From Eledone cirrhosa (Eukaryota): a DNA stretch of 64,000 nucleotides. The stretch covers positions 213,900,001 to 213,964,000 of the forward strand of contig OZ024743.1 of assembly GCA_964016885.1 (NCBI GenBank), given 5' to 3'. Of this stretch, positions 29,391 to 38,264 are shown in pieces. Every line of letters starts with the position of its first letter. The first letter of the stretch is position 1. A model generated the notes under the pieces. The model ran no database searches and was not told where the DNA came from. It saw only the letters and a list, made by a program, of their open reading frames with translations. The position numbers and the translations under genes were made by a program.

Positions 29391-30004
29391 TATGATTTAT
29401 CTCCTTTACATAATGTTTTCTATATCTATATATGATTCATATATATTTAATTTACTTTCTATTATTTCTACCTCACATATATATACTATATACTTCATAT
29501 TATTACATCTATCGATAGATTATAAACATTTTTTTTATATGACTCTTATAAGAAAAATTTTTCTTGAAAAACTTACGGAAGGTTTTATTTCAGATCATAA
29601 TCTACATGAGGTCTACTGACTTGTAGTCAGTTCCGCTGTCTGTTTGCATACGTATATCTTTTTGTTACATTTTTAATTCTTTTAACTTTTTCAATCCTTG
29701 AGTCTGTCGTCACTTATATATCCTCCGATGTACAAGAGTATCCTTTTGGTTATAAATTTTAACACTTTTTAAAAAGTAGTGTGTACATGTATGTGCGGGT
29801 ACAGGAAAAACCTATATATATATATATATATATACACACACACACATATATACATATATATATATATATATATATATATATATATATATATATATATATA
29901 TATATATATATATATATATATATATATATGTATATATATATATAAACTATTAAAAAAATAATGAATAAAACAATGAAACAGTTCCTTATATTAAACAAAA
30001 AAAG

Positions 30005-30158
30005 TTCATTATTTAACGATCGTTTCTAGGATATATATGTGTTAGAATTGGCATGCATATTCAACAGATCTATGTACAAAATTATACAAAATTATACAAA
30101 CTATCAAAATTAAATATACATACCAACACATATATATGCCGTCTTCAGAAATAATGAA
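30005..30158 (-). ncRNA. Hammerhead ribozyme with long stem II
   Basis: ttcattattt CTGAAGA c ggcatatatatgtgttgg...ctaacacatatatatcct a GAAA cgatcg TT aaataatgaa; perfect 10-bp stem I. Confidence 0.75.
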
Positions 30159-31859
30159 ATATATTTATTGATAATAGCAACAATTCAAAATTACAGGTCT
30201 GTTTGGGAACAGAGTTCAAATTGACCAATGAAAACACAAAAAGTTTATACAGTTAGGTGTATGTATATATGTAAGTAACTTCGTTCACAGATATGCATAA
30301 AAATATATATGTTCACATGCATACGCATGCCGAAAAGATGTATGTAAATACAAAAATTCAGGGCTAATGTCTCTGTATGTTTATAATCTACAGATAAAAT
30401 ACGTATACGCATATAAACATATTAATATAAAAATAAATATATACACATTCATATACTCACACATATACATACATTCACACACACACGCGCGTATACGCAT
30501 AAACATACACACAACCACGAACATACATACACACACACACTCACACACACATATATGTGTATATACCATTATCATAAGCATATGGACATTAATGCGCGCA
30601 CATAAACACTGCCACACATATTTAGATCCAGATACAGAAAGTAGGTGGGGGGGGGGGCGAAGAGGTCAGTATTCACCGGTGTCAGCAAACTTCCTATTTA
30701 TACATGTATCTATAAATTTAGAAATAAAAGGAAAAGAAAAAAGAAAAATATTAAGAAAATATATATATATATAAATATATATATATATATATATATATAT
30801 ATATATATAAACAAGTAAAATATAAAATATACATCGATATACATACATATACATATATATATATATATATATATATACACATACACTTATATACATATAC
30901 ATACATATACATACACACACCATATAAATACATATACACATACACACACGCATACATATAGAGACACATACATATACACATATAAATACATAGGCATATA
31001 CATATATACACACACATATATATATATATATACACACATACATATATATATATACATTCACAACACACATATATATATATATATATATATATGTACACAT
31101 ACACACACACACACATACATACACACATATACACATACACACATACAAAGATATATATATATATATATACACACACACATATAATATAATAATATATATA
31201 TATATATATATATATATATATATATATATATATATATATACATATATATATATACACATACATACACATACATACTCATACATAGACATACATATATACA
31301 CACACACACATACACACATACATATACGCATATATACACATACATACACATCCATGTATGCGTATACACATACAAACACAACCACACGCTCACACAACTC
31401 AGACATACATAAATAAAGGGATATACATACACATATATACATATATAAATAGAGATACGTATACACATATAAATATATACACACATACACACACACACAT
31501 ATACATACACATACATATACACATGCATATATATATATATATATATATATATATATATATATATATATATATATATATATATATATATATATATATATAT
31601 ATATATAAATATATATATATATACATATATATATATATATATATATAAAAAAATAAAGAAATAAAAGAAATAAATAAATAAATTAATTAATACACACAGT
31701 CAGACAAATATGCACACACATACATATACACATATATATACATACATATATATATATATATATATATATATATATATATATATATATATATATACATACA
31801 TACATATATATATATACACATACACACATCAACTACAAATATATATATATATATATATA

Positions 31860-32245
31860 TGGAAAGTTATATTTAACTTGTTGGGTTACAACTAGTAAAT
31901 ATTTATAACTGATATAAAAGCACTCAACAAGTATTTGGAGTATATTTACGATACTAAATAAATGGAAACTACATCTACAAAACCACATCTATCTCATCAT
32001 ACATACCTCAGGGACATCACACTAACAATATGTTATGCCCTCCCCAGACAAAATACTGCCAAATCAACTGTTCAAATACAAGTCGATGTTGAACGGTATG
32101 TCAAATCTATTTATTTATAAAACTGTCTATATTGTATTTTGTCTGAAGAAGGCACAACACACCGTCAATATGACATCCCTGAAACATATATAATGAAACA
32201 AATATGGCCCTACAAATACAGCCTCCATTCATTCAATATCGTATA
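31860..32245 (+). mobile_element. Nested mini-PLE end fragment (related to 47650-50690 termini); mirror copy at ~35537-35919
   Basis: Shares ttgttgggttacaac/gatataaagcactc tail and HHR region with 50460-50690; bounded by (TA)n. Confidence 0.75.
32135..32200 (+). ncRNA. Minimal hammerhead ribozyme
   Basis: tattttgt CTGAAGA agg...cct GAAA catata TA atgaaaca. Confidence 0.62.
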
Positions 32246-32973
32246 CATACATATATATATATATATATATATATATATATATATATATATATATATATAT
32301 ATATATACACAAACACTCAAATATACAGGCGCACATACGTACATATATACATATACACACATATACACATAGACGTATACATGCGCATACATATACATAC
32401 ACACATATACTCACATAAATACATAGATACATATATATATATATACATATATATACATATATATATATACATATATATATATATATATATATATATATAC
32501 ACACAATCATACACCCTTATTTACATGCGCACATATGTATTTTTATACTCACATACAAACACCCAAACATACATACCTACCTACATATACATACATACAT
32601 CCACGCTTACAAATACAAATAATAATAGGGGGGAGGGGGGATTATAGTAAATATAGGTTTCAAGAAACATAGAATATTAATCTGCATTTAGATCATAATA
32701 TGTGTTTACATAGTAGTTTCAGTATTAGGAAATGTAAGAAAGAAGGCAAAATTATGCATTTTAATATAAGTAGACTATTAATTATAGGTTAACTAAATTA
32801 AAGATAGTTAATATATTGATTTCTAAGGTGTATACTACTTAGGTTTATAATATTTGAAGCGGAATTTTGAAGTTAATTAGTAGTAGAGTATTAACTATAG
32901 TATAACTAAATTAAAATTATTAACGTTATGGTATCAATATTAGGAAATTAATTTAGTAATAGGGAAAAAAACC

Positions 32974-35579: not shown

Positions 35580-35645
35580 TGTTTCATTATATATGTTTCA
35601 GGGATGTCATATTGACGGTGTGTTTAGCCTTCTTCAGACAAAATA
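35580..35645 (-). ncRNA. Minimal hammerhead ribozyme (mirror of 32135)
   Basis: Reverse complement of 32135-32200 with few differences. Confidence 0.62.
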
Positions 35646-37842
35646 CAATATAGACAGTTTTATAAATAAATAGATTTGACATACCGTTCAACATCGACTT
35701 GTATTTGAAAAGTTGATTTGGCAGTATTTTGTCTGGGGAGGGCATAACATATTGTTAGTGTGATGTCCCCGAGGTATGTATGATGAGATAGATGTGGTTT
35801 TGTAGATGTAGTTTCCATTTATTTAGTATCGTAAATATACTCCAAATACTTGTTGAGTGCTTTTATATCAGTTATACATATTTACTAGTTGTAACACAAC
35901 AATTTAAATATAACTTTCCATATATATATATATATATATATATATATTTGTAGTTGATGTGTGTATGTGTATATATACATATGTATTATATGTATGTATA
36001 TATATATATATATATATATATATATATATATATATATATATATATATATATATATATATATATATATATATATATATATGTATGTATATATATGTGTATA
36101 TGTATGTGTGTGCATGTTTGTCTGACTGTGTGTATTAATTTATTTATTTATTTATTTATTTTATTTCTTTATTTTTTTATATATATATATATATATATAT
36201 GTATATATATATATATATATATATATATATATATGTGTGTATATGTATGTGTGTGTATATATATGTATGTGTATATGTATGTGTATGTATATGTGTGTGT
36301 GTGTGTATGTGTGTATATATTTATATGTGTATATGTATCTCTATTTATATATGTATATATGTGTATGTATATCCCTTTATTTATGTATGTCTGAGTTGTG
36401 TGAGCGTGTGGTTGTGTTTGTATGTGTATACGCATACATGGATGTGTATGTATGTGTATATATGCGTATATGTATGTGTGTATGTGTGTGTGTGTATATA
36501 TGTATGTCTATGTATGAGTATGTATGTGTATGTATGTGTATATATATATATGTGTATATATATATATATATATATATATATATATATATATATATATATA
36601 TATATTTATTATATTATATGTGTGTGTGTATATATATATATATATATCTTTGTATGTGTGTATGTGTATATGTGTGTATGTATGTGTGTGTGTGTATGTG
36701 TACATATATATATATATATATATATATATGTGTATATATATATATATATATATATATATATATATATATATATATGTGTGGGTATGTATGTGTATGTGTG
36801 TATATACATGAGTGTGTTTATATATGTGTATAGATATATGTATATATATATATATATATATATATATATATATATATGTGTGTTGTGAATGTATATATAT
36901 ATATGTATGTGTGTGTATATATATATATATGTGTGTGTATATATGTATATGTCTATGTATTTATATGTGTATATGTATGTGTCTCTATATGTATGCGTGT
37001 GTGTATGTGTATATGTATTTATATGGTGTGTGTATGTATATGTATGTATATGTATATAAGTGTATGTGTATATATATATATATATGTATATGTTTGTATA
37101 TCGATGTATATTTTATATTTTACTTGTTTATATATATATATATATATATATATATATATATATATATATATATGTATATATATATATATATATATATATA
37201 TATATATATATATATATATATATATATATATATATATATATATATTTTCTTAATATTTTTCTTTTTTCTTTTCCTTTTATTTCTAAATTTATAGATACAT
37301 TTATGAATAGGCAGTTTGCTGATACCGGTGAATACTGACCTCTCCCCCCCCCCCACCTACTTTCTGTATCTGGATCTAAATATGTGTGGCAGTGTTTATG
37401 TGCGCGCATTAATGTCCATATGCTTATGATAATGGTATATACACATATATGCGTGTGTGAGTGTGTGTGTGTATGTATGTTCGTGGTTGTGTGTATGTTT
37501 ATGCGTATACGCGCGTGTGTGTGTGAATGTATGTATATGTGTGAGTATATGAATGTGTATATATTTATTTTTATATTAATATGTTTATATGCGTATACGT
37601 ATTTTATCTGTAGATTATAAACATACAGAGACATTAGCCCTGAATTTTTGTATTTACATACATCTTTTCGGCATGCGTATGCATGTGAACATATATATTT
37701 TTATGCATATCTGTGAACGAAGTTACTTACATATATACATACACCTAACTGTATAAACTTTTTGTGTTTTCATTGGTCAATTTGAACTCTGTTCCCAAAC
37801 AGACCTGTAATTTTGAATTGTTGCTATTATCAATAAATATAT

Positions 37843-37996
37843 TTCATTATTTCTGAAGACGGCATATATATGTGTTGGTATGTATATTTAATTTTGATAG
37901 TTTGTATAATTTTGTATAATTTTGTACATAGATCTGTTGAATATGCATGCCAATTCTAACACATATATATCCTAGAAACGATCGTTCAATAATGAA
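37843..37996 (+). ncRNA. Hammerhead ribozyme with long stem II (sense to PLE ORF)
   Basis: ttcattattt CTGAAGA ... GAAA cgatcg TT caataatgaa. Confidence 0.72.
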
Positions 37997-38264
37997 CTTT
38001 TTTTGTTTAATATAAGGAACTGTTTCATTGTTTTATTCATTATTTTTTTAATATTTTATCTTGACTCTGTATTCCGTTTATCTTTCACCGAAAGTGATTT
38101 TTCATTGCATCTCTTCTTTCCATGATATCCGGATTACATTGAGTCCTTCATACGGATTGGACACTACCTAAACTCTTGGTAGATTTATCTACATATATAT
38201 ATATATATATATATATATAGTGACGAAACATGAGTCAATTGCATGAACTCATAATCCTTTATTT

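Follow-up and report, generated by a model that had tools for sequence, protein, structure and literature searches.

The window analyzed here is a 64,000-nucleotide (nt) stretch of the Eledone cirrhosa genome (GenBank assembly GCA_964016885.1, contig OZ024743.1, positions 213,900,001 to 213,964,000), and near its middle lies a fold-back copy of a Penelope-like element (PLE), in which a truncated open reading frame (ORF) stands between two inverted copies of one long, microsatellite-rich 3′ region with a hammerhead-like motif near its end (Table 1). We read this copy as, very probably, a 5′-truncated insertion of a high-copy-number Hydra-clade PLE whose whole family carries a 3- to 5-kb 3′ region that is half microsatellite, the second arm being a second cDNA primed on the opposite target strand. 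Global alignment confirmed the inverted repeat around the ORF, pairing 29942 to 32974 with the reverse complement of 35162 to 38059, and the element itself ends at 38192, 133 nt past its mirrored part. A preliminary description, made from the letters of the stretch, had set the arm ends at 29948 and 38053; the arms do pair there, but these limits fall 6 nt short because of a single mismatch at 38054, and the element runs on to its later end. Both flanks were identified as (TA)n by Tandem Repeats Finder (TRF).

Over eight mostly unique blocks, the two arms differ at 22 of 1,767 positions (1.25%), with 11 differences private to the right arm, 8 private to the left arm, and 3 at sites that are polymorphic in the family. 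The lengths of their TA tracts differ by 2 to 66 bp, bearing out the early observation that the unique parts of the arms are nearly identical while repeat lengths vary. The block reported as missing from the right arm was also recovered, as 335 bp that are kept in 20 of 20 other copies, and ∼148 bp at right-arm positions 36696 to 36853 are in turn absent from the left arm. A 2-nt microhomology was read by eye at the inversion junction; an automated survey of junctions was confounded by microsatellites, and microhomology is cited for the window junction only.

Table 1. Features of the fold-back element and its flanks, in window coordinates
Feature	Position	Strand	Basis or remark
(TA)n target tract, left flank	29813..29941	.	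TRF; adjoins short end of left arm
Inverted arm, 5′-truncated second copy of 3′ region	29942..32974	-	Begins at short 3′ end (= 38059)
Hammerhead-like motif, left arm	29995..30148	-	Motif scan and variants; family-majority sequence around cleavage site
Mirror copy of nested 385-bp insert	31862..32240	-	
335-bp block, left arm only	32416..32750	-	Arm alignment and 20/20 other copies
Inversion junction, 2-nt microhomology	32973..32974	.	By eye
5′-truncated Hydra-clade PLE ORF, 529 amino acids open	32974..34563	+	
AT-rich degenerate duplications of ORF end and first 3′ bases	34564..35385	+	Self-matches 66-83%
Microsatellite-rich cargo: (TA)n, (TG)n, (TATG)n and short unique spacers	35386..37560	+	Order kept in other copies
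Nested insert in TA tract	35541..35919	+	8/20 best-match copies; empty site elsewhere
Type I hammerhead-like motif	37843..37996	+	
Short 3′ end site of family, likely one reverse transcription initiation site	38059	+	
133-nt tail to long 3′ end (likely second initiation site)	38060..38192	+	No left-arm mirror
(TA)n target tract, right flank	38193..38219	.	TRF

The ORF is open from the junction to its stop at 34563, as first noted, and holds the late reverse transcriptase (RT) motifs, the thumb, the CxCX5C linker, and the GIY-YIG endonuclease. The N-terminal RT part of a protein of ∼790 amino acids is gone, so the window copy cannot be autonomous. In near-full copies elsewhere, the ORF spans up to 828 amino acids from stop to stop, the encoded protein has ∼790, and a single ORF carries RT followed by a C-terminal GIY-YIG endonuclease, with the IVYK...YIG core near the C terminus. 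The RWK motif expected close to the N terminus is lost from the window copy by truncation; it occurs as the variant RWR in one near-full copy (L028), where DKG is modified to DKT (HSDKTGN). The linker reads CNCRNKANC in the window ORF and in other copies, CxxC and CxH are present as CRLC and CNH, and the CCHH motif was judged absent by eye, without alignment to canonical endonucleases. These protein motifs agree by eye with the Hydra-clade supplementary alignment of PMC8557442 and, on the motifs and that comparison, the family is a Hydra-clade PLE. Insertion into (TA)n is seen at 47 of 48 terminal ends, the remaining one running into a TA-like stretch. The unit is not below 3 kb and thus exceeds the general length of Hydra-clade PLEs, a figure that PMC8557442 gives as description and not as diagnostic. 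The only named homologues among 30 protein matches were octopus proteins (39 to 47% identity); for the truncated window ORF, Pfam gave no match and a PDB sequence search nothing meaningful. A Naiad/Chlamys PLE, with an N-terminal endonuclease and no hammerhead, was ruled out by the C-terminal endonuclease and the hammerhead-like motif, and a Neptune/Nematis PLE (CX2-5CxxC linker, CCHH) by the CxCX5C linker.

The motif near the 3′ end, located in sense where the preliminary description had put it, is a predicted type I hammerhead with a palindromic stem III and a stem II hairpin of ∼115 nt, and it is mirrored in the left arm. The core, the 10-bp stem I, and the palindromic stem III are present and conserved across copies, while stem II is atypically long. 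In one subfamily, an A-T pair of stem II is changed to G-C on both sides (by eye), and one substitution private to the right-arm motif of the window, A>C, falls within stem I at 37987. A wider Rfam scan gave only sub-threshold microRNA-type matches among the 150 of 271 matches listed. An antisense hammerhead-like core at 32145 was rejected: it folds no better than shuffled sequence (z 0.08) and is part of the nested insert. Outward-facing pairs of hammerhead-like motifs occur also at 50843 (-)/51578 (+) in the window and at two other loci (L075 and L077), probably as small fold-backs of further PLE families.

The 3′ region proved to be a property of the family. We searched the host assembly (3.0 Gb, 1,796 contigs) and used two samples, namely, 20 of the best-scoring ORF matches and, to avoid selection, a systematic sample drawn at intervals of five from the first 100 ORF-end matches on the list, of which 19 of 20 were counted. 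The distance from stop to hammerhead-like motif was 2,794 to 3,944 nt in 19 of 19 systematic copies (ORF identity, 94 to 99%) and 3,192 to 5,319 nt in 17 of 20 best-match copies. In the same 36 of 39 copies, the unique 3′ blocks follow the stop in identical order, and one complete unit (L036) measures 6,222 bp from hammerhead to hammerhead. Exact matches across the genome numbered 1,031 for an ORF-end 25-mer and 3,733 for a hammerhead 21-mer, and reversed controls gave 0. The long 3′ region thus belongs to the family and not to the window copy alone: members do not end shortly after the ORF, the outcome that would have spoken against the first description, and its claim that microsatellite travels inside the retroelement holds in all 19 systematic copies and in 17 of the 20 best matches. 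Head-to-tail arrays of 3 to 4 family units, with a period of 6.4 to 6.9 kb, were observed at 125.84 to 125.85, 126.84 to 126.86, and 183.74 to 183.76 Mb of one contig (G000 C1), as candidate source loci.

TRF (period, ≤6) covers 45% of the window 3′ region and perfect repeats cover 20%. The DNA between ORF and hammerhead is therefore microsatellite-rich, as described at the outset, but not mostly microsatellite, and 34564 to 35385 is an AT-rich degenerate self-duplication instead, the first ∼800 bp past the stop being copies of the ORF end. Among the 19 systematic copies, the median TRF cover was 50%, with a median of 19 TA tracts of at least 10 bp, against a genome background of 12.3% mean TRF cover (standard deviation, 10%) across 20 stretches of 10 kb taken at fixed positions (by chance, a family copy lay in one of them). 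The TA tracts of the cargo serve as new targets, as had been proposed, since filled and empty sites were both observed. The 385-bp block of the window lies inside a TA tract in 8 of 20 best-match copies, four inspected copies have a plain empty tract, and it was found within the element at 0 of 20 systematic loci; the block, itself an old fold-back of small size, resembles the 3′ end of a sister Hydra element at 47600 to 47900 and is now inherited by a subfamily. Private inserts within TA tracts were found in three other copies: an antisense non-LTR RT fragment (motif by eye; L027, 7200 to 9060, oriented), a 0.6-kb insert of unknown sequence (L026, 6850 to 7470, oriented), and a retrozyme-like tandem array with a period of ∼450 bp (L030, 7300 to 9300, oriented). 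The short repeat of this array, which has a compact type I hammerhead-like motif, also occurs at 39220 (+) and 44609 (-) of the window and at L077 and L080. Together, the nested inserts and the ORF-end duplications demonstrate in-place accretion for part of the cargo; the remainder may derive from an ancient capture of host DNA in the family ancestor. The cargo likely grew by slippage, local duplication, and repeated landing of TA-seeking elements in its own TA tracts.

Copies of the family stop at one of two exact sites, corresponding to 38059 and 38192 and lying ∼133 nt apart, beyond which comes TA or, in tandem arrangements, the 5′ untranslated region (UTR). The 54 classified ends comprise 26 long ends followed by TA, 21 short ends followed by TA, 5 long ends followed by 5′ UTR (tandem), 1 cut end, and 1 long end running into the TA-like stretch. 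Among the first 100 hammerhead matches there were 61 clusters, of which 30 face outward and 2 inward, showing that the fold-back is the common insertion form. In a first set of fold-backs with both ends classified, 10 of 10 have one long and one short end (an eleventh is cut off). The second set was drawn from the outward clusters, 18 of the 30 being simple pairs that fit in 10 kb; 1 of the 18 runs into a tandem, and 16 of the 17 resolved pairs again have one long and one short end. Pooled, the rule holds in 26 of 27 resolved fold-backs (P = 2e-7 versus 50:50), and either arm may bear the long end. The arms of one insertion were more similar to one another than to the median of the other copies in 17 of 17 comparisons, which include one near tie and 4 direct repeats. 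Published accounts describe the PLE tail as often or optionally present at one end (PMC8557442; PMC3846280). The use of a different end site by each arm in 26 of the 27 fold-backs suggests two cDNAs, one primed on each strand of the target.

A mechanism consistent with these observations can be proposed. The enzyme, probably as a dimer, would nick both strands of one TA tract, and each nick would prime reverse transcription from within the template, at a site either 72 or 205 nt past the predicted hammerhead cut; the two cDNAs, broken off at different points, would then be joined head to head through short microhomology. Given that the priming sites lie downstream of the predicted cut, the template would likely be uncleaved or tandem RNA, and given that priming would take place at the far 3′ end, every copy would traverse the cargo before reaching the ORF. 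In vitro, a PLE from Anolis cuts and extends both strands, uses unprocessed RNA, is predicted to form a dimer, and starts reverse transcription at two internal sites bounding the tail (PMC11167929). An inverted arm is the standard form of PLE insertion (Craig 2021; PMC8557442, Fig. 2 legend).

Several points weigh against this reading. In 3 of 20 best matches, the hammerhead-like motif was not reached within the 4.4 to 5.4 kb examined, the earlier blocks being present. Both ends are short in one pair (L110), whose arms diverge by 6.9%, from which we judge, after the fact, that it probably represents two separate events. Another pair (L102) is not classifiable. The distal 500 bp of the window arms are less diverged than the rest (2/500 versus 20/1,267; P = 0.054), so some gene conversion between the arms is possible. 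In the hammerhead-like motif, the base of stem II is mismatched and the minimum free energy fold lacks the core; Rfam gave no hammerhead match at 37780 to 38200. Finally, both the palindrome and the presumed transcription through the cargo are read from assembled genomic sequence, and the clade assignment is based on motifs and inspection by eye.

The palindrome could in principle be an assembly fold-back artefact, produced by a chimeric hairpin read or a mis-joined repeat, given that long palindromes and TA tracts are difficult to assemble. Four sequencing runs over 32640 to 34860 (short contigs or restriction site-associated DNA reads) were uninformative, none of them spanning the palindrome or showing the junction. 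However, an artefact would not readily account for 19 private substitutions split 11 to 8 between right and left, for a distinct deletion in each arm, for asymmetric ends that conform to the family rule, or for two flanks that differ, and we regard it as highly improbable. A one-off 3′ transduction, in which the window copy alone captured a host microsatellite flank, is scarcely credible either. Pen1_Av does capture copy-specific spacers (PMC3846280), and a first DNA search with the distal block gave only 8 candidates; this low number arose because the search skipped common words, and the idea that the distal region is rare was rejected by the later counts. The ordered blocks common to 36 of 39 copies and the 3,733 exact hammerhead matches refute such a capture for this copy.

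The inverted arm might have arisen not from two primings but from self-priming or fold-back of one cDNA, or from a later inverted duplication at the DNA level. Self-priming has already been proposed for PLE inverted repeats (PMC3846280), and the window arms do share a template. If one arm had been copied from the other, though, the two ends would not fall on the two family sites as they do in 26 of 27 fold-backs, where either arm may bear the long one, and the 335 bp are retained in the left arm only, even though the right-arm deletion may be later; this origin is thus unlikely. Another proposal, compatible with a second opposite-strand-primed cDNA, is that a spliceosomal intron in the pseudo-long terminal repeat (pLTR) or UTR was retained and makes up the microsatellite region. 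PLEs keep introns, including UTR introns (PMC8557442), the region ranges in length from 3.0 to 5.3 kb, and an intron would account for its tolerance of length change and insertions. Precise loss of the region was seen in 0 of 35 measured copies, and we consider an intron doubtful. Two opposite-strand primings of a template that carries the cargo remain our preferred explanation.

How much of the microsatellite load of the genome the family supplies can be bounded from above. We estimated ∼4,200 arms, a figure adjusted for the finding that 53 of 60 sampled motifs were exact. If all of them were full length, they would hold ∼8 Mb of simple repeat, or ∼2% of an estimated 370 Mb, and ∼85,000 of ∼7 million TA tracts (∼1%); the background was estimated from just 200 kb, and the share covers neither sister families nor copies that are older and diverged. 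Since many arms are short, the true share lies below ∼2%, and the family likely supplies ∼2% or less of the microsatellite DNA. The suggestion that such elements are a direct route to the microsatellite load of the genome is therefore supported as regards carriage but weakened, for this family, as regards size. TA targets are not limiting for the family. More speculatively, and on present evidence improbably, the Hydra PLEs of this genome would be self-seeding, each insertion using one TA tract and delivering ∼20 per full arm, with the dose doubled by the fold-back; the dimer would be obligately asymmetric, with one cDNA per RNA site, and all Hydra families together with older waves would be a main builder of the TA/TG microsatellite landscape.

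The arms had also been put forward as a paired measure of slippage, which is valid in principle because they share a template, but TA lengths in an assembly are inseparable from sequencing error without reads. Repeat-length differences were seen even between arms 0.1% apart, and of 90 indels next to repeats, 72 have an even length (a count that includes a divergent pair and two tiny overlapping pairs). These differences could reflect replication slippage, RT slippage, or assembly error, which are not separable from assembly sequence. At the octopus substitution rate of 0.0036 per Myr quoted in PMC13282606, if it applies, the window insertion would be ∼1.7 Myr old.

Elsewhere in the window, a sister Hydra-type remnant lies at 49393 to 50387 (-), with 41% identity and a 3′ region of ∼1.7 kb (to ∼47700) that ends in a hammerhead-like motif resembling the nested 385-bp insert. 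Low-complexity 3′ regions are found in two further sister copies from the fixed-position stretches, ∼1.5 kb in L073 and ∼1.3 kb in L076, and a long 3′ region may therefore be frequent in the Hydra families of this genome. An older Hydra-type endonuclease remnant at 28972 to 29587 (+) belongs to a family with 555 first-look candidates whose match ends ∼190 bp past the stop; insertion of the fold-back element inside the 3′ region of this neighbor is unsupported, as that match stops at ∼29587. More GIY-YIG-type PLE remnants, of other families, occur at 22556 to 23328 (-) and 24285 to 25503 (+), and two adjacent sets of degraded non-LTR RT ORFs, together with a gag-like ORF, lie at 4029 to 9266 (+) and 800 to 1873 (-).

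These results roughly double the known unit size of Hydra-clade PLEs and show why the true 3′ ends and hammerheads would go unnoticed in repeat libraries whose entries are cut at the first microsatellite. The one-long, one-short rule lends support from the genome to two separate primings, one on each strand of the target, and it makes the origin of PLE inverted repeats and tails testable, since a tail of 133 nt is readily scored. If verified in raw reads, the hundreds of arm pairs could serve to calibrate how microsatellites change in length, as every pair carries a substitution clock of its own, and the share estimate places a bound on the seeding idea for this family alone. PLE inverted arms, tails, and microsatellite carriage (in shrimp) are already published. 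In the papers it covered, our literature search found no report of long microsatellite-laden Hydra elements or of a one-site-per-arm rule, and Repbase, Dfam, or the Zenodo octopus repeat library may hold the family.

Like the Hydra clade described in PMC8557442, which includes Hydra-1_Obim, the family combines a C-terminal GIY-YIG endonuclease with RW[K/R], DKT, CxCX5C, and CxxC plus CxH motifs, and it shares the (TA)n targets, a putative 3′ hammerhead, the inverted 5′-truncated copy, and the one-sided tail. The 27 Hydra families listed there measure 1,080 to 3,045 bp (Hydra-1_Obim, 2,507 bp with its hammerhead at 2,403), whereas the unit here is ∼6.2 kb with a 3′ region of 3 to 5 kb; the tail is ∼133 nt as opposed to 30 to 40, and stem II of the hammerhead is ∼115 nt. 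Poseidon PAc of Anolis (Frangieh et al. 2024; PMC11167929) likewise has two internal RT starts bounding the tail and both strands cut and extended, but it belongs to another clade and its tail is 30 to 40 nt; the parts of that report covered here do not include a one-site-per-arm rule. Pen1_Av of Adineta vaga (Arkhipova et al. 2013; PMC3846280) also has a long ORF-pLTR spacer (0.9 to 1.5 kb), inverted pLTRs, and an optional tail, yet its spacers are unrelated between copies, while the region described here is homologous across the family and microsatellite-rich. The CR1-L3 elements of snakes, which are long interspersed nuclear elements (Pasquesi et al. 2018; PMC6050309), similarly multiply simple sequence repeats (SSRs) at their 3′ end, but as a terminal AATAG tail that drives a genome-wide excess of the motif, in contrast to an internal compound cargo that makes up ∼2% or less of simple repeats. 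Also comparable are the Penelope elements of Litopenaeus vannamei (Yuan et al. 2021; PMC7878876), whose recent copies are >98% identical and carry syntenic internal SSRs, interpreted as moving with the element, with SSR elongation and new insertion after transposition; what is added here is the clade, the size of the cargo, and the structure of the ends, measured over 39 copies.

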